Positions 1 to 11,416 of a stretch of 11,416 nucleotides of DNA are shown here, piece by piece. Position 1 is the stretch's first letter; each line of letters opens with the position of its first letter. The translations under genes and the position numbers were made by a program. Source of the stretch: a virus (taxonomy: Duplodnaviria; Heunggongvirae; Uroviricota; Caudoviricetes); IMG/VR virus record IMGVR_UViG_2541047168_000023, positions 1 through 11,416 of that record. One strand, written 5' to 3'. Under the pieces are notes generated by a model, which saw only the letters and a list, made by a program, of their open reading frames with translations, was not told where the DNA came from and did no database searches.

Positions 1-174
1 CAACTCCGGGAGCCGTGATTATGGCATTCAGGCTCTGCTAAAAATGCCAGATAACATTCCGGCCTCCCCTGATTCAGGTTATAAATGACACAATATCTTG
101 ACAACACCCGTCACTGTCTGTCAGAAAATATACCGCCAGGCATAAGTATCATGTGAAATCCAACTATCCTTCTG

Positions 175-217
175 AGCCAGCACCTCTCCACCGAAAGTCA
201 GTGCTGGCTGTTTTTTT
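175..217 (+). terminator. Candidate intrinsic terminator: 9-bp stem, long loop, T-run
   Basis: AGCCAGCAC (175-183) pairs with GTGCTGGCT (201-209), followed by G + TTTTTTT (211-217). The 17-nt loop is longer than typical, which lowers confidence. No ORF of 60 aa or more lies upstream in the window. Confidence 0.3.
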
Positions 218-423
218 CCTTAATAAAGCATCTGTAACTGGTTGTTGTTCTGCGGGTTCTGTTCTTCGTTGACATGAGGTTGCCCCGTATTCAGTGTCGC
301 TGATTTGTATTGTCTGAAGTTGTTTTTACGTTAAGTTGATGCAGATCAATTAATACGATACCTGCGTCATAATTAATTATTTGACGTGGTTTGATGGCGT
401 AGATGCACGTTGTGACATGTAGA

Positions 424-438
424 TGATAATTATTATCA
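424..438. promoter_or_regulatory. Perfect 7-1-7 inverted repeat TGATAAT-T-ATTATCA (Fur-box-like)
   Basis: Read directly: TGATAAT (424-430), T (431), ATTATCA (432-438), inside an AT-rich stretch about 40 bp upstream of cosN. It matches the 7-1-7 description of Fur boxes (TGATAATnATTATCA); function is unknown. Confidence 0.3.
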
Positions 439-474
439 TTTTGCGGGTCCTTTCCGGCGATCCGACAGGTTACG

Positions 475-486
475 GGGCGGCGACCT
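475..486. other. cosN: cosN 12-nt cohesive-end sequence (lambda-type cos site)
   Basis: GGGCGGCGACCT at 475-486, preceded by CGACAGGTTACG and followed by CGCGGGTTTTCGCTATTTATGAAAATTTTCCGG. From recollection this matches the phage lambda cos junction (right end ...CAGGTTACG, left end GGGCGGCGACCTCGCGGG...). The small terminase gene starts about 185 bp downstream, as in lambda. Confidence 0.85.
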
Positions 487-520
487 CGCGGGTTTTCGCT
501 ATTTATGAAAATTTTCCGGG

Positions 521-632
521 ATCCATGTCCGGTTTCTCTTCAAGTTAACTATATGAAAAATATAAAAACAGGTCTTCTGTGAACCGGACATGAACAAAAA
601 ACAGACATGTAAACCGGACATGACCGGTTTTG
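521..632 (+). promoter_or_regulatory. cosB: Putative cosB: three copies of ATGTCCGGTT flanking an AT-rich IHF-like segment
   Basis: ATGTCCGGTT at 525-534 (+ orientation) and its reverse complement AACCGGACAT at 582-591 and 612-621. An AT-rich stretch (about 545-570, TATATGAAAAATATAAAAACAGG) lies between the first and second copies. This mirrors lambda cosB (R3, I1, R2, R1, with R3 inverted), but the repeat sequence differs from what I recall of the lambda R sites. Confidence 0.5.
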
Positions 633-669
633 TTGTGATTGTGAGGTGAGAGTTTTTGCGAGGTGAGGA

Positions 670-1179
670 GTGGCTACGCAGACTGAAGTTGCCAGGCATT
701 TAAGTCTGACCGATCGCCAGCTTCGCAGATTGCAGAAATTGCCGGGTGCCCCGATATCGAATAAGCGAGGGCAACTGGATCTGGATGCCTGGCGCGATTT
801 TTACATATCGTATCTGAGGAGAAGTAAAAACGATGTGCCTGATGGCGATAGCGAAGACGACTATGAGGAGAAATTGCTTATTGCCAGATGGGAACTGACA
901 GCAGAACAGGCTGTTACACAGCAGTTAAAAAATGAGGTGTCAAAAGGAAAACTGATTGACACCGGGTTCTGTATTTTTGCCCTCAGTAAGCTGGCAATGG
1001 CGTTATCCAGTACGCTTGATTCCATCCCTTTATCCATGCAGCGACAGTTTCCTGATTTAACACCGCGCCATCTTGACCATCTGAAAACCCTTATTGCTAA
1101 GGGGGCAAATCAGTGTGCGCGGGCAGGGGATAAATTACCGGATTTACTTGATGAATATATCAGAGCAACAACTGAATAA
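670..1179 (+). CDS. Nu1: Terminase small subunit (Nu1 family)
   Basis: 169-aa ORF from GTG 670, immediately after cos and overlapping the start of A. The C-terminal half resembles lambda Nu1 as I recall it (FCxFxLS..., PLSxQRxFP, LxEYI). The N-terminal region (TQTEVARHLSLTDRQLRRLQ) is HTH-like but unlike lambda Nu1. Confidence 0.85.
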   Translation: MATQTEVARHLSLTDRQLRRLQKLPGAPISNKRGQLDLDAWRDFYISYLRRSKNDVPDGDSEDDYEEKLLIARWELTAEQAVTQQLKNEVSKGKLIDTGFCIFALSKLAMALSSTLDSIPLSMQRQFPDLTPRHLDHLKTLIAKGANQCARAGDKLPDLLDEYIRATTE

Positions 1180-3080
1180 TATGATGAGCGCTGTCACAAC
1201 TGCATTACAGCCCCTGATAAGGGCATTGCCGGTGACGCCAGTTGAATGGGCTGATCAAAATTATTATCTGCCTAAAGAATCTTCATATGGTGAGGGCGAA
1301 TGGAAAACGCTGCCATTCCAGATCGCCATCATGAACAGTATGGGGAATGATCAGATCCGCACTGTTAATCTGATTAAATCTGCCCGTGTTGGCTATACAA
1401 AGATGTTGCTGGGGGGGGGGCGGGTATTTTATTGAGCATAAATCCCGAAACAGTCTGCTTTTTCAGCCCACGGATTCTGCCGCTGAAGATTTTATGAAGT
1501 CTCACGTGGAGGCGACGATTCGGAACGTGCCATGCCTGAAAGACCTTTCCCCATGGCTGGGTCGTAAACATCGTGACAATACTCTCACGCTGAAACGCTT
1601 TTCATCGGGCGTCGGTTTCTGGTGCCTGGGCGGCGCTGCCGCCAAAAACTACCGTGAAAAATCCGTTGACGTGGTCTGCTATGACGAACTTTCCTCGTTC
1701 GAGCCGGATGTCGAAAAAGAGGGCTCGCCAACCCTGCTGGGGGATAAGCGTATTGAGGGGTCGGTGTGGCCAAAATCCATTCGCGGCTCGACGCCTAAAA
1801 TCAAAGGCACCTGCCAGATCGAAAAAGCCGCTAACGAGTCGGCGCATTTTATGCGTTTTTATGTGCCCTGCCCGCACTGTGGGGAGGCGCAGTATCTGAA
1901 ATTTGGCGATGAGTCCACGCCTTTTGGGCTTAAATGGGAGAAGGACAGCCCTGAAAGTGTTTTCTACCTCTGTGAACATCATGGCTGCGTGATCCATCAG
2001 TCTGAACTGGACCAGAGCAACGGGCGGTGGATCTGTGAAAACACGGGCATGTGGACCCGTGACGGTCTGACGTTTTTCAGCGCCCGGGGTGATGAAATTC
2101 CGCCGCCGCGCTCCATCATGTTCCATATCTGGACGGCGTACAGTCCGTTCACCACCTGGGTACAGATTGTCTATGACTGGCTGGATGCACTGAAAGATCC
2201 CAACGGCCTGAAAACCTTTGTGAACACCACGCTGGGCGAGACCTGGGAAGAGGCCGTGGGCGAAAAACTCGATCACCAGGTACTGATGGATAAGGTGGTG
2301 CGTTACACGGCGGCGGTGCCTGCCCGGGTGGTTTATCTGACGGCGGGCATTGACTCGCAGCGAAACCGTTTTGAGATGTATGTCTGGGGATGGGCTCCGG
2401 GAGAGGAAGCCTTTCTGGTGGATAAAATCATCATTATGGGGCGTCCTGATGAGGAAGAGACGCTGTTACGTGTGGATGCGGCGATCAACAAAAAATACCG
2501 CCATGCGGATGGCACCGAAATGACTATTTCCCGTGTCTGCTGGGACACCGGGGGGATCGATGGTGAAATTGTTTATCAGAGATCAAAAAAACACGGTGTT
2601 TTCCGGGTGCTGCCGGTAAAAGGCGCATCTGTCTATGGCAAGCCGGTGATCACCATGCCAAAAACCCGCAATCAGCGGGGCGTGTATCTGTGTGAAGTGG
2701 GAACGGACACCGCAAAAGAAATTCTCTATGCCCGTATGAAAGCCGATCCCTCGCCTGCGGATGAAGCCACGTCGTATGCCATCCGTTTTCCTGATGATCC
2801 GGAGATTTTTTCGCAGACAGAGGCGCAGCAACTGGTGGCGGAAGAGCTGGTGGAGAAGTGGGAAAAAGGAAAGATGCGTCTGCTGTGGGATAACAAAAAG
2901 CGGCGTAACGAAGCGCTGGACTGCCTGGTGTATGCCTACGCGGCATTACGTGTGTCCGTGCAACGCTGGCAGCTTGATCTGGCTGTACTGGCAAAATCCC
3001 GGGAAGAAGAGACGACCCGGCCAACCCTGAAAGAACTGGCAGCGAAGCTGTCCGGAGGAGTGAATGGTTACAGTCGCTGA
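1151..3080 (+). pseudogene. A: Terminase large subunit (gpA homolog), frame interrupted at a G10 tract (real frameshift or homopolymer error)
   Basis: Two ORFs in different frames (1094-1435 and 1386-3080) together give a full-length gpA homolog. The likely start is ATG 1151 (MNISEQQL..., compare lambda MNISNSQV...). The frames switch at GGGGGGGGGG (1411-1420); removing one G gives ...GYTKMLLGGGGYFIEHK..., collinear with lambda ...GYSKMLLGVYAYFIEHK... Downstream motifs are conserved (KNYREKSVDV, FVNTTLGETWE, KRRNEALDC). Confidence 0.8.
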
Positions 3081-3270
3081 ACTGCAGGCGCTGCGTCAGG
3101 CGCGCCTTGATTTATTAACCGGTAAACGGGTGGTGTCTGTCCAGAAAGATGGTCGCAGAATTGAATATACGGCGGCTTCTCTGGATGAGCTTAACCGGGC
3201 GATCAATGATGCGGAGTCGGTACTGGGGACAACCCGGCGTCGCCGTCGTCCGCTGGGAGTGAGGTTATGA
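3064..3270 (+). CDS. W: Head-tail joining (head completion) protein gpW
   Basis: 68 aa, with LxxGKRVxxVQKDGRRxE[FY]TA and a C-terminal RRRR motif as in lambda gpW. The start overlaps the end of A and the stop overlaps the B start (ATGA at 3267-3270). Confidence 0.85.
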   Translation: MVTVAELQALRQARLDLLTGKRVVSVQKDGRRIEYTAASLDELNRAINDAESVLGTTRRRRRPLGVRL

Positions 3271-4859
3271 AACGAACGCCTGTCCTGATTGATGTGAACG
3301 GCGTTCCGCTTCGTGAGAGTCTCAGCTACAACGGGGGCGGTGCAGGATTTGGCGGGCAAATGGCGGAGTGGTTGCCACCGGCGCAGAGTGCCGATGCGGC
3401 CCTGCTGCCCGCGTTGCGTCTGGGGAATGCCCGGGCAGATGATCTGGTGCGCAATAACGGAATAGCGGCCAATGCGGTGGCACTGCATAAGGATCACATT
3501 GTCGGGCATATGTTTCTTATCAGCTACCGTCCGAACTGGCGCTGGCTGGGGATGCGGGAGACCGCAGCAAAAAGCTTTGTCGATGAGGTGGAGGCGGCCT
3601 GGTCGGAATACGCCGAAGGGATGTCTGGCGAGATCGACGTGGAAGGAAAACGCACGTTCACGGAATTTATCCGTGAAGGTGTGGGCGTTCATGCGTTTAA
3701 CGGCGAAATCTTTGTGCAGCCGGTCTGGGATACGGAAACCACGCAGTTATTCCGTACGCGTTTTAAAGCCGTGAGTCCGAAACGGGTGGACACGCCAGGA
3801 CACGGTATGGGGAACCGTTTTCTGCGGGCCGGGGTGGAGGTCGATCGATATGGCCGTGCCGTTGCGTACCATATCTGTGAGGATGATTTTCCTCGCTCCG
3901 GGAGTGGACGATGGGAACGGATCCCGCGTGAACTTCCCACCGGGCGTCCGGCCATGCTGCATATTTTCGAGCCGGTGGAGGACGGGCAGACCCGTGGGGC
4001 CAACCAGTTTTACAGCGTCATGGAACGGCTGAAGATGCTCGATTCCCTGCAGGCAACACAGCTTCAGTCGGCCATTGTGAAAGCCATGTATGCAGCGACG
4101 ATTGAAAGTGACCTTGATACCGAAAAGGCCTTTGAATATATCGCCGGTGCGCCGCAGGGGCAGAAGGATAATCCGCTTATTAATATTCTGGAGAAGTTCT
4201 CCAGCTGGTATGACACGAATAACGTGACGCTGGGTGGTGTCAAAATTCCGCACCTTTTCCCCGGGGATGATCTGAAACTACAGACTGCGCAGGATTCAGA
4301 CAATGGATTTTCGGCGCTTGAACAGGCGCTGCTGCGGTATATCGCCGCCGGTCTTGGCGTTTCCTACGAACAGTTGTCCCGTGATTACTCGAAGGTCAGT
4401 TATTCAAGTGCCAGGGCCTCTGCCAATGAGTCGTGGCGCTATTTTATGGGGCGGCGAAAATTTATTGCGGCCCGGCTGGCCACGCAGATGTTTTCCTACT
4501 GGCTGGAAGAGGCACTTCTTCGGGGGATTATCCGTCCGCCACGGGCGCGTTTTGATTTTTATCAGGCGCGATCAGCCTGGTCACGGGCAGAGTGGATTGG
4601 TGCCGGAAGAATGGCCATTGACGGGCTCAAGGAGGTTCAGGAATCGGTGATGCGCATTGAGGCCGGACTGAGCACGTATGAGAAAGAGCCGGCGCTGATG
4701 GGCGAGGATTATCAGGACATTTTCCGCCAGCAGGTCAGGGAATCTGCAGAGCGGCAAAAAGCCGGACTCTCACGTCCGGTGTGGATAGCGCAGGCGTATC
4801 AGCAGCAGATAGCGGAGAGTCGCAGGCCGGAAGAGGAGACAACACCCCGTGAGACGTAA
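3267..4859 (+). CDS. B: Portal protein gpB
   Basis: 530 aa with long stretches matching my recollection of lambda gpB (ARADDLVRNNG, FEPVEDGQTRGAN, LQSAIVKAMYAATIES, LRYIAAGLGVSYEQLSR, GRMAIDGLKEVQE). Position after W is as in lambda. Confidence 0.9.
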   Translation: MKRTPVLIDVNGVPLRESLSYNGGGAGFGGQMAEWLPPAQSADAALLPALRLGNARADDLVRNNGIAANAVALHKDHIVGHMFLISYRPNWRWLGMRETAAKSFVDEVEAAWSEYAEGMSGEIDVEGKRTFTEFIREGVGVHAFNGEIFVQPVWDTETTQLFRTRFKAVSPKRVDTPGHGMGNRFLRAGVEVDRYGRAVAYHICEDDFPRSGSGRWERIPRELPTGRPAMLHIFEPVEDGQTRGANQFYSVMERLKMLDSLQATQLQSAIVKAMYAATIESDLDTEKAFEYIAGAPQGQKDNPLINILEKFSSWYDTNNVTLGGVKIPHLFPGDDLKLQTAQDSDNGFSALEQALLRYIAAGLGVSYEQLSRDYSKVSYSSARASANESWRYFMGRRKFIAARLATQMFSYWLEEALLRGIIRPPRARFDFYQARSAWSRAEWIGAGRMAIDGLKEVQESVMRIEAGLSTYEKEPALMGEDYQDIFRQQVRESAERQKAGLSRPVWIAQAYQQQIAESRRPEEETTPRET

Positions 4860-6354
4860 TCTTTCACACATTATTGCCGCAGCATTCAATGAACCGCTGC
4901 TTCTGGAGCCCGCCTATGCGCGGGTTTTCTTTTGCGCGCTCGGGCGCGAGATGGGGGCAGCAAGTCTTTCGGTACCACAGCAGCAGGTACAGCTTGATGC
5001 TCCCGGAATGCTGGCTGAAACGGACGAGTACATGGCCGGAGGTAAACGACCGGCCCGTGTTTACCGGGTGGTGAACGGTATTGCTGTACTGCCGGTGACC
5101 GGCACGCTGGTGCACCGGCTGGGGGGTATGCGGCCATTTTCCGGAATGACAGGCTATGACGGCATTGTCGCCTGTCTTCAGCAGGCAATGGCGGATAGCC
5201 AGGTGCGGGGCGTACTGCTGGACATTGACAGTCCGGGCGGGCAGGCCGCCGGCGCGTTTGACTGCGCTGACATGATTTACCGCCTCCGTCAGCAGAAGCC
5301 GGTCTGGGCACTGTGCAATGACACGGCCTGTTCTGCAGCCATGCTGCTGGCGTCGGCCTGCTCCCGACGGCTGGTTACCCAGACATCCCGTATCGGCTCC
5401 ATTGGCGTGATGATGAGCCATGTCAGCTATGCCGGTCATCTGGCGCAGGCCGGTGTGGATATCACGCTGATTTACTCAGGGGCGCACAAGGTGGATGGCA
5501 ATCAGTTTGAAGCCTTACCGGCAGAGGTTCGCCAGAACATGCAGCAGCGCATTGATGCGGCGCGCCGGATGTTTGCCGAAAAAGTGGCCATGTTTACCGG
5601 TCTGTCTGTTGATGCCGTCACGGGAACAGAGGCCGCCGTTTTTGAAGGTCAGTCCGGCATTGATGCCGGGCTGGCGGATGAATTAGTCAATGCGTCGGAT
5701 GCCATCAGTGTGATGGCCACGGCGCTGAACAGTAATGTCAGAGGAGGCACTATGCCGCAATTAACTGCAACGGAAGCCGCCGCGCAGGAGAACCAGCGAG
5801 TGATGGGGATCCTGACATGCCAGGAAGCGAAAGGACGTGAACAGCTTGCCACGATGCTGGCAGGACAACAGGGCATGAGCGTTGAACAGGCCCGGGCGAT
5901 TCTGGCCGCGGCGGCACCGCAGCAGCCGGTGGCATCCACGCAGAGTGAAGCCGATCGCATTATGGCGTGTGAAGAAGCGAACGGTCGTGAACAACTGGCG
6001 GCAACGCTGGCGGCGATGCCGGAGATGACGGTGGAAAAAGCCCGCCCGATCCTGGCTGCTTCACCGCAGGCGGATGCCGGACCCTCACTCCGTGATCAGA
6101 TCATGGCACTGGATGAGGCAAAAGGGGCTGAGGCGCAGGCTGAACAGCTGGCTGCCTGCCCGGGAATGACTGTGGAGAGCGCCCGGGCTGTGCTGGCTGC
6201 GGGATCAGGTAAGGCAGAACCGGTCTCTGCATCCACAACCGCCCTGTTTGAACGCATCATGGCGAACCATTCACCGGCTGCGGTACAGGGTGGCGTGCCA
6301 CAGACGTCAGCAGACGGTGATGCGGACGTGAAAATGCTCATGGCCATGCCATGA
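4849..6354 (+). CDS. C: Prohead protease/scaffold gpC (S49/SppA-like peptidase domain), with an expanded repeat at the C terminus; a nested Nu3-like scaffold product is possible
   Basis: 501 aa, GTG start overlapping the end of B. The N-terminal two-thirds match lambda gpC as recalled (AFNEPLLLEPAYARVFFCAL, MTGY, GAFDCAD, KPVWAL, RRLVTQT, GSIGVMM, ITLIYSG.HKVDGN, IDAGLADELVN). The C-terminal third carries tandem repeats (separate repeat feature). Confidence 0.9.
   Translation: MRRNLSHIIAAAFNEPLLLEPAYARVFFCALGREMGAASLSVPQQQVQLDAPGMLAETDEYMAGGKRPARVYRVVNGIAVLPVTGTLVHRLGGMRPFSGMTGYDGIVACLQQAMADSQVRGVLLDIDSPGGQAAGAFDCADMIYRLRQQKPVWALCNDTACSAAMLLASACSRRLVTQTSRIGSIGVMMSHVSYAGHLAQAGVDITLIYSGAHKVDGNQFEALPAEVRQNMQQRIDAARRMFAEKVAMFTGLSVDAVTGTEAAVFEGQSGIDAGLADELVNASDAISVMATALNSNVRGGTMPQLTATEAAAQENQRVMGILTCQEAKGREQLATMLAGQQGMSVEQARAILAAAAPQQPVASTQSEADRIMACEEANGREQLAATLAAMPEMTVEKARPILAASPQADAGPSLRDQIMALDEAKGAEAQAEQLAACPGMTVESARAVLAAGSGKAEPVSASTTALFERIMANHSPAAVQGGVPQTSADGDADVKMLMAMP
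5797..6300 (+). repeat. In-frame tandem repeats (about 141-159 bp, 3 full copies plus 1 partial) in the C-terminal region of C
   Basis: Units begin at 5797 (RVMGILTCQEAKGREQLATMLAGQQGMSVEQARAILAAAAPQ), 5956 (RIMACEEANGREQLAATLAAMPEMTVEKARPILAASPQ) and 6097 (QIMALDEAKGAEAQAEQLAACPGMTVESARAVLAAGSG), with a partial copy at 6253 (RIMANH...). As I recall, lambda gpC has a single such unit (RIMGILNCEEAHGREEQARVLAETPGMTVKTARRILAAAPQ). Confidence 0.65.
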
Positions 6355-6390
6355 AGTCAGTGCTGACCATCAACAGGAGGTTTTTACAAT

Positions 6391-6738
6391 ATGGTAACGA
6401 AAAACATCACTGAACAGCGTGCGGAAGTACGTATTTTTGCCGGTAATGATCCGGCTCATACCGCCACAGGCAGCAGCGGGATTTCCTCGGCAACACCGGC
6501 ACTGACGCCCCTGATGCTGGATGAAGCCAGCGGGAAACTGGTGGTCTGGGACGGACAGAAAGCCGGTAGTGCAGTTGGCATACTGGTACTGCCGCTTGAA
6601 GGCACAGAGACGGTACTGACCTATTACAAGTCGGGGACCTTTGCGACGGAGGCAATCCGCTGGCCTGAAAGTGTGGATGAACACAAAAAGGCAAATGCCT
6701 TTGCCGGCAGTGCCCTGAGTCACGCGGCGCTGCCGTAA
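6391..6738 (+). CDS. D: Head decoration protein gpD
   Basis: 115 aa with RBS AGGAGG (6375-6380). It shares DPAHTAT, TPLMLD, KLVxWDG, AVGIL, YKSGTF and AFAG with lambda gpD as recalled. Confidence 0.9.
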   Translation: MVTKNITEQRAEVRIFAGNDPAHTATGSSGISSATPALTPLMLDEASGKLVVWDGQKAGSAVGILVLPLEGTETVLTYYKSGTFATEAIRWPESVDEHKKANAFAGSALSHAALP

Positions 6739-6795
6739 CACGTTATCAGGCCACCGCGGTGGCCTGACTGATTTCTGAATGAAAGGAACTGATTT

Positions 6796-7062
6796 ATGGG
6801 ATTGTTTACGACCCGCCAGTTACTCGGTTATACCGAACAAAAAGTGAAATTTCGTGCGCTGTTTCTGGAGCTGTTTTTCCGCCGTACGGTGAATTTCCAT
6901 ACCGAAGAGGTGATGCTGGACAAAATTACCGGAAAAACGCCGGTGGCGGCCTATGTCTCCCCGGTTGTTGAAGGAAAAGTGCTGCGTCATCGCGGTGGTG
7001 AAACCCGCGTGTTACGTCCGGGCTACGTCAAGCCGAAACACGAATTCCCCTGGAGCCGGTAA
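6796..7062 (+). pseudogene. E: Truncated major capsid protein gene (E'), N-terminal ~84 codons only
   Basis: MGLFTTRQLLGYTEQKVKFRALFLELFF...PGYVKPKHE tracks lambda gpE (MSMYTTAQLL...KFKFDPLFLRLFF...PGYVKPKHE) up to 7044. It then reads FPWSR and stops at 7060-7062. Lambda gpE is about 341 aa. Confidence 0.8.
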
Positions 7063-7784
7063 AAGGAGCCGGTACCACCCTGTGGGTTTATAACGGTCAG
7101 GGTGACGCCTATGCAAACCCGTTGTCAGACGATGACTGGCAGCGACTGGCTAAGGTGAAGGATCTGACGCCGGGCGAGATGACGGCAGAATCCTACGATG
7201 ATAACTACCTGGATGATGAAGACGCGGACTGGACCGCGACCGGGCAGGGGCAGAAATCTGCAGGTGATACCAGTTTTACGCTGGCCTGGAAACCGGGAGA
7301 GGAAGGCCAGAAAGGGCTTATAGGCTGGTTTGAAAGCGGCGATGTCCGGGCCTATAAAATCCGTTTTCCGAATGGCACGGTGGATGTGTTTCGTGGCTGG
7401 GTCAGCAGTATCGGTAAGGCCGTGACGGCGAAAGAAGTGATCACCCGCACGGTGAAAGTCACTAACGTGGGTAAACCTTCTGTAGCGGAAGAACGCAGCA
7501 AAATTACGCCGGTCAGTGCGATTAAGGTGACGCCGACATCCGGTACGGTGGCAAAAGGGAAAACAACCACCCTGACGGTTTCTTTTGAGCCGGAAAGTGC
7601 AACAGACAAGACGTTCAGAGCGGTTTCCGCCGATCCGTCGAAAGCCACCATTAGTGTGAAAGATATGACAATTACGGTAAACGGCGTGGCGACAGGTAAG
7701 GTGCAGATCCCTGTGGTGAGCGGAAATGGTCAGTTCGCCGCAGTGGCTGAAGTCACCGTTACTGAAGCGGGCGCTGCAGGGTAA
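7056..7784 (+). pseudogene. V: Major tail protein V lacking its first ~8 codons and native start (V')
   Basis: In the frame of ORF 7122-7784, the sequence from about 7056 reads [41 protein letters not shown]...[40 protein letters not shown]..., closely matching lambda gpV from about residue 9. This frame is closed by TGA at 6999-7001 and has no ATG/GTG before TTG 7122. Confidence 0.8.
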
Positions 7785-7797
7785 ACGGAGGTAATAC

Positions 7798-8220
7798 ATG
7801 TTTCTGAAAACAGAACAATTTGAATATAACGGTGTGTCCGTCACGCTTTCCGAATTGTCTGCGCTGCAGCGGTTTGATTATATAAAGTTTGTTTCAGACG
7901 CAGAACAACAGGAGACAACGAAGCATGATGTCGTGCACATTAACCAGCGATATCTGGAAACGGCATCCCTGCTTGTGGCGATGTCGCTATGGCATTCCCA
8001 TTCCCTCAAAGGCACTCTGGCCTCTCCGGAGACAGAGATGCAGCAGATCCGCCGTGAAGTGATGCTGGGATGGCCTGCTGATGCACTGAATCAGGCAACG
8101 AACCGGGTGCTTTATCTTTCAGGTATGCTGGATAACCGGCACGATGCCGATCCTGAACCAACCGGGAAAACAGAAGCGACTGAGCCGGTAACATCAAAAA
8201 AGCATTCGAAGGCGAGCTGA
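7798..8220 (+). CDS. G: Tail assembly chaperone gpG
   Basis: 140 aa, RBS GGAGG upstream. MFLKTEQFEYNGVSVTLSELSALQR...LLVAMSLWH... matches lambda gpG (MFLKTESFEHNGVTVTLSELSALQR...FLVAMSLWH...) as recalled. Confidence 0.9.
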   Translation: MFLKTEQFEYNGVSVTLSELSALQRFDYIKFVSDAEQQETTKHDVVHINQRYLETASLLVAMSLWHSHSLKGTLASPETEMQQIRREVMLGWPADALNQATNRVLYLSGMLDNRHDADPEPTGKTEATEPVTSKKHSKAS

Positions 8221-8555
8221 ACTTTGTCCTGAAACTGGCGCGTGAGATGGAGAGAGCCGACTGGCGCGCCATGCTTGCCGGGATGACATCCACCGAATAT
8301 GCCGACTGGCGACGTTTTTACTGCACGCATTATTTTCAGGATACCCAGCTGGATATGCATTTTTCCGGGCTGATGTACGCCGTACTCAGCCTGTTTTTTT
8401 GCGATCCGGATATGCATCCGGCGGATTTCAGCCTGTTCGCTCCGGAGGCAGAGGAAGGACAGGCGGAGACGCCGGACGAAAATGATGTACTGATGCAGAA
8501 GGCGGCGGGCCTCGCCGGTGGAGTCCGTTTCGGGGAGGAGGGAAGGAGGTTGTGA
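7798..8555 (+). CDS. T: Tail assembly protein G-T (fusion produced by a -1 frameshift near 8196-8202)
   Basis: The T-homologous ORF (8247-8555 in the track) has no RBS or independent context and sits in the -1 frame relative to G. It continues without a stop from the slippery site at about 8199. Confidence 0.75.
8196..8202 (+). promoter_or_regulatory. Programmed -1 ribosomal frameshift slippery heptamer A-AAA-AAG (G to G-T)
   Basis: In the G frame the codons are TCA AAA AAG, six codons before the G stop. The -1 frame from here is open to 8555 and encodes a gpT homolog (MERADWRAMLAGMTSTEYADW...DPDMHP...VLMQKAAGLAGGVRFG). The G/G-T arrangement is conserved in lambda-like tail modules. Confidence 0.7.
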
Positions 8556-8598
8556 CAGTTATTGATGGTATCAGAGGACATTTCAGGAGGTGACCACG

Positions 8599-11244
8599 AT
8601 GGCAGGTAATTTTGCCGATCTGACAGCCGTGCTGACACTGGATTCTGCCCGTTTTTCTGAAGAGGCAGCGCGGGTAAAAAAAGAGCTGGGTGAAACCAGT
8701 GCGCTTGCTGATTTGATGTCCGGGAAAGTCAGTCAGTCTTTCAGAAAACAGGCTGATGCTGCTGAGCAGAGTCTGAGCCGACAGGCGCTGGCTGCACAAA
8801 AAGCCGGGATATCAGTCGGACAGTATAAGGCTGCCATGCGCACACTGCCCGCACAGTTCACGGATATTGTCACTCAGCTTGCCGGTGGTCAGAATCCCTT
8901 CCTTATCATGCTGCAGCAGGGGGGGCAGATCAGCGATTCATTCGGTGGACCGCTCAGCCTGCTTACCCTGCTGAAGGAGGAACTTCTCGGGATCAGGGAT
9001 GCCTCTGAATCATCAGAGGAGTCGCTGTCAGATACGGCAAATGCACTGGCTGAAAATGCCCGGAATGCCGGTGAGCTGGGACGATTTATGTCGGTGGCCC
9101 GTGTGGCGGCAGGTGGCGGGGTTGCCGTACTGGCCGCGCTTGCTGCCGCCGCCTGGCAGGCAGAGCAGGCTGACCGGGCCTTATTGCGTTCACTGACCCT
9201 GACCGGAGGGGCTGCTGCCACCACAACGGCAGAATTGTGGAAAATGGCCGGGGTGATCAGCGATGAAGCCGGTGGTGGTATCAGACAGGCGGCAGAAAAT
9301 CTGGCCCGTCTGGCAGAAAGCGGGAAATATACCGCCGGGCAGCTACGGATCATGGGGGAAACCTCTCAGAGATGGCTGCAGACGGTGGGGGACGATGCCG
9401 GGAAGGTGGAAAAAGCCTTTGAAGGGATTGCAGCAGATCCGGTGAAGGCGCTGGCCTCCCTGAATCAGCAGTATAACTTCCTGAGCGTTTCCCAGTTACG
9501 CCATATTGATGAGCTTGAGCGCACGAAAGGTAAACAGGCTGCGGTGACGGAGGCGATGTCCCTGTTTGCGGATGTCATGAATGCACGTCTGGAGCAACTT
9601 GATAAAGCGGCCACGCCGGTGGAAAAAATCTGGGACGATGTTAAAACCTGGACTTCTGACGCATGGGCATGGATAGGTGATCATACACTGGGGGCACTCA
9701 GTCTGATCACTGACGTGGTGGCAGGAACCGTTGAACAGGTGAAGCTGCTGCTTGTGCAGGGGGATCTGGCGCTGGCTGAATTTATTCAGTCAGCCTGGGA
9801 AACGACAAAGAATGTGCCCGGCGTTGGTGCGTTGTTTGGTGAACTGGCAGAAGAGAACCGCGTATTTATTGAGAAAACAAAACGTGATGAACTGGCGCTG
9901 AGAAAATCCATTGCGGAACGGGATGCGCGTATACGCCAGGGGGAAATGGGGTACATCAACCGCTCGCGTGCAACAGGCGTCAGCAAAGGTCCGGGGCAGC
10001 AGGAAGCCGTCAGCCGTCTGGCTGAAGAGCTGACAGGTAAAAAGCATACATCACCGAAAACGCGCTCTGCCGGGGAGAGGGAAGAGGAGCAGGCAAGAGA
10101 GGCTCTGCTTGCCCTTGAAGCTGAGCTCAGGACGCTGGAAAAACACAGCGGTGCGAATGAGAAAATCAGCCGGCAGCGCCGTGATTTATGGAAAGCGGAA
10201 AGTCAGTATGCGGTCCTGAAAGAGGCTGCCACGAAACGACAGTTATCTGAGCAGGAAAAATCCCTGCTGGCGCATAAAGACGAGACGCTGGAGTACAAAC
10301 GCCAGCTGGCTGAGCTGGGCGACAAGGTTGAATACCAGAAACGCCTGAATGAGCTGGCACAGCAGGCGGTGCGGTTTGAAGAGCAGCAGAGCGCGAAGCA
10401 GGCCGCCATCAGCGCAAAAGCCCGCGGTCTCACTGACCGTCAGGCGCAGCGGGAGTCTGAAGCGCAGCGTCTTCGGGACGTGTACGGTGATAATCCGGCT
10501 GCGCTGGCGAAGGCCACATCGGCACTGAAGAACACCAGGTCTGCGGAGGAGCAGCTTCGTGGAAGCTGGATGGCCGGGCTGAAGTCCGGCTGGGGCGAGT
10601 GGGCGGAAAGTGCGACGGACAGTTTTTCGCAGGTTAAAAGTGCTGCCACGCAGACCTTTGACGGTATTGCACAGAATATGGCGGCGATGCTGACCGGTGC
10701 AGAGGCAGACTGGCGGGGATTCACCCGTTCGGTGCTGTCCATGATGACAGAAATCCTGCTTAAACAGGCCATGGTGGGCATTGTCGGGCGTATCGGCAGC
10801 GCCATTGGCGGTGCTTTCGGTGGTGGTGCATCTGCTTCCTCGGGGACGGCCATTCAGGCTGCGGCGGCGAACTTCCATTTCGCGACCGGAGGATTTACGG
10901 GGACGGGCGGCAAATATGAGCCTGCGGGGATAGTTCACCGCGGGGAGTTTGTTTTCACGAAAGAGGCAACCAGCCGGATAGGTGTGGGGAATCTTTACCG
11001 TCTGATGCGCGGCTATGCGGAAGGTGGTTATGTGGGTGGTGCCGGAAGTCCGGCGCAGATGCGGCGGACGGAAGGCATTAATTTTAATCAGAACAATCAC
11101 GTGGTGATTCAGAACGACGGCTCCAACGGACAGGCGGGGCCGCAGCTGATGAAGGCGGTGTATGACATGGCCCGCAAGGGGGCGCAGGATGAGATTCAGG
11201 CGCAGATGCGTGATGGCGGCGTCTTTTCCGGAGGCAGGCGATGA
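8599..11244 (+). CDS. H: Tail tape measure protein gpH
   Basis: About 880 aa. RBS AGGAGG (8585-8590) precedes ATG 8599, which I prefer over GTG 8590. Long stretches match lambda gpH as recalled (SLSRQALAAQKAGISVGQYKAAMR.LPAQFTD, LRTLEKH.GANEKIS.QRRDLWKAESQ.AVL.EAA, SVLSMMTEILLKQAMVGIVG, HFATGGFTGTGGKYEPAGIVHRGEFVFTKEATSRIGVGNLYRLMRGYA). Confidence 0.92.
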   Translation: MAGNFADLTAVLTLDSARFSEEAARVKKELGETSALADLMSGKVSQSFRKQADAAEQSLSRQALAAQKAGISVGQYKAAMRTLPAQFTDIVTQLAGGQNPFLIMLQQGGQISDSFGGPLSLLTLLKEELLGIRDASESSEESLSDTANALAENARNAGELGRFMSVARVAAGGGVAVLAALAAAAWQAEQADRALLRSLTLTGGAAATTTAELWKMAGVISDEAGGGIRQAAENLARLAESGKYTAGQLRIMGETSQRWLQTVGDDAGKVEKAFEGIAADPVKALASLNQQYNFLSVSQLRHIDELERTKGKQAAVTEAMSLFADVMNARLEQLDKAATPVEKIWDDVKTWTSDAWAWIGDHTLGALSLITDVVAGTVEQVKLLLVQGDLALAEFIQSAWETTKNVPGVGALFGELAEENRVFIEKTKRDELALRKSIAERDARIRQGEMGYINRSRATGVSKGPGQQEAVSRLAEELTGKKHTSPKTRSAGEREEEQAREALLALEAELRTLEKHSGANEKISRQRRDLWKAESQYAVLKEAATKRQLSEQEKSLLAHKDETLEYKRQLAELGDKVEYQKRLNELAQQAVRFEEQQSAKQAAISAKARGLTDRQAQRESEAQRLRDVYGDNPAALAKATSALKNTRSAEEQLRGSWMAGLKSGWGEWAESATDSFSQVKSAATQTFDGIAQNMAAMLTGAEADWRGFTRSVLSMMTEILLKQAMVGIVGRIGSAIGGAFGGGASASSGTAIQAAAANFHFATGGFTGTGGKYEPAGIVHRGEFVFTKEATSRIGVGNLYRLMRGYAEGGYVGGAGSPAQMRRTEGINFNQNNHVVIQNDGSNGQAGPQLMKAVYDMARKGAQDEIQAQMRDGGVFSGGRR

Positions 11245-11416
11245 AAACCTTTCGCTGGAAAGTGAAGCCGGATATGGAGGTGAACTCGCAGCCATCGGTG
11301 CGTGAAGTGCGTTTTGGTGACGGGTATTCGCAGCGTATGGCGGCGGGGCTGAATGCTGACCTGAAAACATACCGTGTGACGCTTTCCGTGACCCGGGAGG
11401 AGGCCCGACATCTGGA
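11241..11416 (+). CDS. M: Minor tail protein gpM (5' part; runs off the window end)
   Basis: ATG 11241 overlaps the H stop (ATGA). Translation MKTFRWKVKPDMEVNSQPSVREVRFGDGYSQRMAAGLNADLKTYRVTLSV... matches lambda gpM (MKTFRWKVKP...VRFGDGYSQR...LKTY.VTLSV) as recalled. It is absent from the ORF track only because no stop falls inside the window. Confidence 0.85.
   Translation, partial: MKTFRWKVKPDMEVNSQPSVREVRFGDGYSQRMAAGLNADLKTYRVTLSVTREEARHL

Follow-up and report, generated by a model that had tools for sequence, protein, structure and literature searches.

The window analysed here, the whole of an 11,416-nucleotide stretch of DNA (positions 1 to 11,416 of the IMG/VR virus record IMGVR_UViG_2541047168_000023), is the complete draft contig AVRG01000010.1 of assembly GCA_000462465.2, and its sequence places it in the Sp4/Sp14 family, a group of defective lambdoid prophages found in Escherichia coli O157:H7. 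We describe a break in its large terminase gene, a homolog of gpA/TerL, at a run of ten G residues (G10), and the variation in length of this run among related prophages. The features at the break are as follows:

1151..1435, + strand: large terminase (gpA/TerL homolog), N-terminal fragment of 94 codons, ending ...KMLLGGGRVFY, with TGA at 1433-1435
1411..1420, + strand: poly-G tract, G10, the first G being the third base of the Leu87 codon CTG; out-of-frame (+1 nt) state
1425..3080, + strand: large terminase remainder, +1 frame; its first codon is TAT (Tyr92 once the frame is restored) and its stop codon is 3078-3080

The large terminase gene is split at a poly-G tract

Positions 1409-1427 read CTG GGG GGG GGG CGG GTA T. 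The G run fills 1411-1420, exactly ten residues, and the tract corresponds to codons 88-91 of 642, near the start of the coding region. The upstream frame, whether begun at ATG 1151 (the start chosen by the NCBI annotation on identical DNA) or at ATG 1181, reads ...KSARVGYTKMLLGGGRVFY / ...NLIKSARVGYTKMLLGGGRVFY and then meets TGA at 1433-1435. The +1 frame, which opens at GTG 1386 and extends to 3080, has the translation ...GGGGYFIEHKSRN... / ...GGGGYFIEHKSRNSLLFQPTD.... A conserved KSARVGYT stretch (1376-1399, codons 76-83) lies directly upstream of the tract, inside the N-terminal fragment, which matches positions 4-45 of the GpA_ATPase profile; the +1-frame remainder matches GpA_ATPase positions 49-247 and the whole GpA_nuclease domain. 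The gene, stopped at 1433-1435, thus lacks the single reading frame of a functional terminase gene, and the Prokaryotic Genome Annotation Pipeline labels the identical sequence 'frameshifted'. With G9 both parts fuse into one open reading frame (ORF) of 642 codons. A preliminary description of this DNA had placed the split exactly at the G10 and had expected the removal of one G to yield a continuous protein collinear with lambda gpA; reading both frames and aligning the 642-residue product with gpA bore out both statements.

The same description regarded a G run of this length as unusual. Statistically, base composition does not make the run stand out: this strand is 31% G, and of 5000 mononucleotide shuffles of it 391 (7.8%) contained at least ten consecutive G or ten consecutive C; the second-longest G run in the window has seven residues. 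What stood is that intact relatives are interrupted at exactly this spot. The G10 is therefore only mildly unusual on base composition, and comparison with relatives is what makes the tract informative. A run of seven G at 8919-8925 lies within the tape measure gene, which is intact in the window.

The G9-restored protein matches PF05876 (GpA_ATPase) over residues 48-293 (E=5.8e-54) and PF20454 (GpA_nuclease) over residues 324-601 (E=1.6e-71). It is 66% identical to lambda gpA over 641-642 amino acids and collinear over the full length; with the intact alleles of E. coli prophages it shares 98-99% identity. The segment KSARVGY(S/T)K is invariant in the alignment with lambda gpA; we take this segment, KSARVGYTK, to act in ATP binding as part of the lambda packaging ATPase centre. 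Like this gene, lambda gpA has the two Pfam domains, a place after nu1 and cos, and the sequence KSARVGY(S/T)KMLLG just before the tract position; unlike it, lambda has a single reading frame without a homopolymer at the site, and Gly-Val-Tyr-Ala where this allele has Gly-Gly-Gly-Gly. A sequence search of the PDB for a solved structure covering residues 88-91 returned no match. Two neighbouring features complete the terminase region:

475..486, + strand: lambda-type cohesive-end sequence GGGCGGCGACCT (cosN), substrate of this terminase, read directly
670..1179, + strand: terminase small subunit gene (nu1 homolog), intact here; Pfam Phage_Nu1

GGGCGGCGACCT equals the first 12 bases of the lambda record J02459, which we take to be the lambda left cohesive end. 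The order of cos, nu1 and large terminase is that required of a lambda gpA-type gene and, by domain content, collinearity and context, the gene is assigned to the lambda gpA family. Between cos and nu1 (520-640), where the sequence is unlike that of lambda, lie several copies of CCGGACATG or its complement CATGTCCGG; these repeats may be putative cosB-like binding sites for the small subunit.

Tract length varies among strains and between prophage copies

Two prophages of this family were found in every O157:H7 genome examined, and ISEc8 interrupts nu1 in the Sp4 copy of most O157:H7 genomes, Sakai and TW14359 included. The Sakai genes in Sp14 (ECs_2735) and Sp4 (ECs_1106) represent the same gene and family as that of the window, with DNA at least 99.95% identical over 3.5-7.6 kb. 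They differ from it in having G9 in both copies, and both genes are annotated as intact, in agreement with the original analysis of the Sakai genome (PMC2669165). TW14359 has G10 in both copies, as does strain 350 in its prophage. Over 7.6 kb, differences from the window in Sakai Sp14, both TW14359 copies and strain 350 were limited to 2-3 single-nucleotide polymorphisms and tract length, and over 3.5 kb the tract is the sole difference between the window and Sakai Sp4. In strain 27_141091 the ISEc8-bearing copy has G12, which is in frame and annotated as an intact protein of 643 amino acids, and the copy with intact nu1 has G11. The three assemblies of strain 86-24, each with one G8 and one G9, were considered as concordant replicates and rejected as such, their flanks disagreeing on which copy carries G8.

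We surveyed tract length in two ways. Queries of 88-91 nt with exact flanks were matched at full identity to 5426 finished genomes:

G8: 34 finished-genome records, exact-flank match
G9: 194 finished-genome records, exact-flank match
G10: 174 finished-genome records, exact-flank match
G11: about 33 finished-genome records, exact-flank match

Many genomes appear in two of these length lists, which indicates that their two copies differ in tract length. The protein predicted for each tract length was also looked up exactly among about 15 billion proteins, and contigs with the exact product were counted:

G5: 1 contig
G6: 0 contigs
G7: 5 contigs
G8: 52 contigs
G9 (642 aa): 982 contigs
G10 (94 aa): at least 1000 contigs
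G11: 98 contigs
G12 (643 aa): 30 contigs
G13: 12 contigs
G14: 4 contigs
G15: 1 contig
G16: 0 contigs

The product spectrum has a single peak at G9/G10 and declines on both sides, a shape consistent with that expected of stepwise slippage from a G9 founder. The difference between G9 and G10 can be regarded as solid, given that it is found in clean assemblies and in roughly a thousand contigs each. Comparison of the same locus in related strains, as the preliminary description had proposed, thus gave a length that varies, with G9 and G10 both common. As at a phase-variable locus, length differs among close relatives and toggles the frame, part of the spread being assembly error.

Origin of the pure G run

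Intact relatives carry GGGGGTGGT or GGGAGTCGC at this site. The common intact allele, CTG GGG GTG GTC GGG TAT (Leu-Gly-Val-Val-Gly-Tyr), was found in O111:H8 and another strain, and the O104:H4 allele is CTG GGA GTC GCC GGG; all of these are interrupted versions of nine nucleotides within a single ORF of 1929 nt. The pure-G allele of O157 is in frame at G9, where it encodes Leu-Gly-Gly-Gly-Gly within the intact 642-residue gene of Sakai. To pass from GGGGGTGGT to G9, two T-to-G substitutions are needed (Val89Gly and Val90Gly), and G10 needs one more G. The in-frame intermediate GGGGGGGGT (G8T; Gly-Gly-Val-Gly) is rare, occurring exactly in seven non-O157 finished genomes among the matches listed; most of the other records are one base off this allele, as expected of the common allele, and the gene under the G8T matches is, by annotation only, a large terminase. 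Since intermediates exist, a stepwise origin by substitution and then slippage is supported. Interrupted alleles also occur in frameshifted form, namely G4TGGT (with a product named for an O55:H7 strain) and G7T (strain E2865), so that the site would have been somewhat prone to slippage before the pure G run arose. A search of isolated phage genomes for the pure-G allele found none, the nearest being 95% identical.

Other lesions and the mosaic structure of the prophage family

The terminase break is one of several lesions in these prophages. The following was mapped downstream of the terminase gene:

6796..7784, + strand: capsid gene E remnant fused to tail tube gene V, with a 10-bp overlap at the junction, 7037-7046

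When compared with an intact O111:H8 relative, 6700-7046 corresponds to the start of E and 7037-8000 to V, and about 2.5 kb is gone, which held the part of E beyond about codon 84 together with FI, FII, Z and U. The E'-V fusion ORF spans 7044-7784, and a truncated capsid gene and a fusion ORF are also annotated in both TW14359 copies, strain 350 and strain 2571. The alignment of Sakai Sp14 to the window runs unbroken through the E-V junction; Sakai Sp4 was compared up to window position 4460 only, short of this region. Both the E-V deletion and cos are common to the window, Sakai Sp14 and the two TW14359 copies. As the copies share the junction, the deletion either predates their divergence or spread by recombination between copies. 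The ISEc8 site in nu1 maps to 925-932, an 8-bp overlap of both flanks, and nu1 is free of ISEc8 in the window and in strains 350, DEC4E, F6321, 2571 and BB24-1. Strain 2571 has an in-frame G9, yet its terminase gene carries a 14-bp deletion (window 2030-2043), a second and independent inactivating lesion. The E-V deletion, ISEc8 in most Sp4 copies and the 14-bp deletion in 2571 are all lesions independent of the tract, as would be expected around a pseudogene.

Over positions 1-7871 the window shares 99.97% identity with a prophage in O157:H7 strain 350, and over 240-7871 it is equally close to Sakai Sp4 and Sp14 and to the corresponding TW14359 pair; none of the finished E. coli genomes matched the window exactly over its full length. 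Positions 7872-10101, covering G/T and most of the tape measure gene, are unlike the finished O157 copies fetched and are closest to O111:H8-type prophages. This divergent segment may reflect real mosaicism or a chimeric or collapsed assembly of repeated prophage DNA. Set against the Sakai prophages, of which Sp4 bears ISEc8 in nu1, the window lacks that insertion and has another allele in the tail region 7872-10101.

Further irregularities were noted in individual strains. In Sakai Sp14 the tape measure and host-specificity (J) genes are each represented by two overlapping ORFs (record positions 2673143-2676621 and 2679215-2681793), which suggests further frameshifts. In 27_141091 (locus 24110-44923) an Sp4-type head, with ISEc8 in nu1, is followed by tccP, espJ and the chromosomal genes yodB and zinT, the latter two being the Sp14 flanks in Sakai; as an Sp4-type head now precedes Sp14-side genes, a large inversion via shared Sp4/Sp14 segments is indicated in this strain. 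One of its copies also has G7 where the window has a G6 run at 5121-5126, in an S49 peptidase gene (gpC-like) that NCBI marks as frameshifted, a change due either to slippage once more or to faulty polishing of duplicated DNA.

A probable passive slippage frameshift and its alternatives

We consider it probable that G10 is the out-of-frame state of a hypermutable poly-G tract, and hence an ordinary slippage frameshift in a gene of a defective prophage. Two T-to-G substitutions would have joined short G runs into one long run, in which slipped-strand mispairing during replication would add or remove single G residues, so that G9 and G10 predominate and shorter and longer runs tail off to either side. 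Mononucleotide runs are indel hot spots in E. coli, and G:C runs of 8 bp are already outliers in K-12 (PMC8510543). Translation in the G10 state would stop after 94 codons, just past the KSARVGYT segment, and no functional packaging ATPase-nuclease is expected, what remains of the ATPase domain being encoded, like the nuclease domain, in a different frame. Because the prophage also lacks genes E to V, the terminase gene is probably under little or no selection, and its function appears to be dispensable. In the two genomes with checked context the copy with intact nu1 is out of frame (TW14359, G10; 27_141091, G11), and in-frame lengths besides G9 are not enriched, G12 (30 contigs) falling between G11 (98) and G13 (12) and G6 being absent. 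The break is thus probably a passive, potentially reversible, pseudogenising slip. The preliminary description, which had offered slippage, a sequencing indel or a variable tract and had taken the break together with the E-V deletion to mark the prophage as defective, needs amending in part. A variable tract made by slippage fits best, and a sequencing indel cannot explain the allele generally; the deletion is real and supports defectiveness independently. The break itself is no unique event marking this prophage, since it is a recurrent and probably reversible state found across strains.

Several observations weigh against this interpretation or limit its reach. The NADC 86-24 assemblies put G8 in the copy with intact nu1, and CP038408 puts it in the ISEc8 copy. 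Two NADC 86-24 assemblies also carry other 1-nt deletions, in runs of G4-G6 and A5-A7, that differ between them; these single-base deletions in short G and A runs (window equivalents 1881, 2550, 2585, 3225 and 3569) almost certainly arose in sequencing. Between FRIK2455 and FRIK2533, which are near-identical, the tract states are swapped. Such discordance between near-identical assemblies is ambiguous between switching and error and, given the discrepancies in 86-24, FRIK and 27_141091, the apparent variation is inflated by long-read homopolymer error, which makes it uncertain how widely and how fast the length really varies and whether the rare extreme lengths are genuine. The product counts for G9 (982) and G12 (30) require a perfect match over some 642 residues and are therefore underestimates relative to those of the short fragments. 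The window itself is a draft contig, possibly of two collapsed copies, and its own G count is that of the assembly. As to relaxed selection on the rest of the gene, the evidence is weak: private changes number 5 nonsynonymous and 7 synonymous, where intact alleles differ from each other by 10 and 58 (Fisher p=0.04 with the two tract codons counted and 0.36 when they are left out), and these changes are few.

If the true allele of the strain were G9 and the gene intact, the extra G would be a homopolymer miscall or would stem from two copies collapsed into one consensus. As a draft whole-genome shotgun contig of 11.4 kb, the window covers a region present twice per O157 genome, and some public assemblies demonstrably contain homopolymer miscalls within this very region. 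We nevertheless judge such an artefact unlikely, as G10 is at least as common as G9 in public assemblies of all kinds and is present in finished genomes that are otherwise free of indels over 7.6 kb, among them strain 350 and, in both copies, TW14359; G10 is for these reasons a real allele, and nothing marks this contig as wrong. Programmed recoding would instead yield full-length terminase from G10, if either the ribosome slipped by +1 at the GGG codons or RNA polymerase slipped on the run. A +1 slip anywhere in the run would produce exactly the G9 protein, the junction peptide expected of the full-length product from the G10 allele being MLLGGGGYFIEHK. The zero frame has CGG, a rare codon in E. 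coli, directly after the run. Documented transcriptional slippage in E. coli occurs mostly at A or T runs, though, and the split architecture is not conserved, functional relatives and Sakai using one frame; in the closest phage isolates (at most 95% identity) the matched stretch is annotated, by annotation only, as terminase DNA packaging protein A. No stimulatory RNA structure was found around or downstream of the tract when the fold of window 1400-1500 (101 nt) was compared with shuffles, this segment being less stable (-21.4 kcal/mol) than the shuffle mean (-26.9; z=+1.6). Recoding therefore seems to us very improbable.

An adaptive role was also weighed, in which the tract would be kept as a stochastic switch, a contingency locus, for the only terminase that recognises the Sp4/Sp14 cos; such a switch could gate the packaging and transfer of effector-carrying defective prophages or limit the cost of chromosome cutting by terminase. 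Neither ON nor OFF lengths are rare, the remainder of the gene has kept its open frame, and Sp14 carries espJ and tccP. In Sakai, with G9 in both copies, Sp4 DNA is packaged despite its own broken nu1, which the authors credit to the Sp14 terminase acting on an identical cos (PMC2669165). The tract also resembles the poly-G/C contingency loci of Campylobacter jejuni, Neisseria and Haemophilus in that it comprises about 8-12 G close to the start of an ORF, differs in length among close relatives and toggles the frame. It differs from them in lying in a gene of a defective prophage, with no sign that switching is selected for or that it alters a surface or restriction phenotype open to selection, and in a host, E. 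coli, whose mismatch repair is intact as far as known. Against a switch stand the lack of enrichment of in-frame lengths beyond the presumably ancestral G9, the OFF state of the intact-nu1 copy in TW14359 and 27_141091, the absence of the pure-G allele from free phage isolates, and the loss of capsid and tail genes from the element through the E-V deletion; no paper on such a switch was found in the literature searched. By a weak test, that of length enrichment and two genomes, neither selection for switching nor selection for the ON state was seen. On balance an adaptive switch is improbable, and so is the related proposal that O157:H7 subpopulations toggle the trans-packaging and horizontal transfer of espJ/tccP prophages, which would make this a phase-variable DNA-packaging enzyme in E. 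coli. Passive slippage in a decaying gene remains the reading that we favour.

Discussion

Replication slippage on a homopolymer, the mechanism proposed here, is textbook; the length variability of this tract was not found in the literature searched. That search, for this tract or for a phase-variable terminase, returned no description and only general papers on Escherichia homopolymers or the O157 prophage pool, the nearest being a survey of homopolymers in Escherichia genomes (PMC8928963). The window resembles the pool of defective O157 prophages described by Asadulghani et al. in 2009 (PMC2669165) in that its frameshift is one of several lesions, beside a deletion and the insertion sequence found in relatives; that work differs in scoring the Sp14 terminase as intact, and the word 'frameshift' is absent from its main text. 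Prophages of the pool are still excisable, and Sp4 is packaged in trans (PMC2669165).

The 'frameshifted' flag on this gene in hundreds of O157:H7 genomes thus reflects an unstable tract, and is neither a fixed lineage marker nor simply bad sequence. Lying in a repeat present twice per genome, with copies that often differ, the tract is a trap for indel-based typing and for long-read polishing, and errors of the kind seen in the NADC assemblies are a warning for homopolymer surveys built on long-read-only assemblies. If the Sp14 terminase packages Sp4 (PMC2669165), this route of mobilisation should be closed to strains in which the copy with intact nu1 is out of frame, a prediction that bears on the movement of defective prophages carrying virulence genes.

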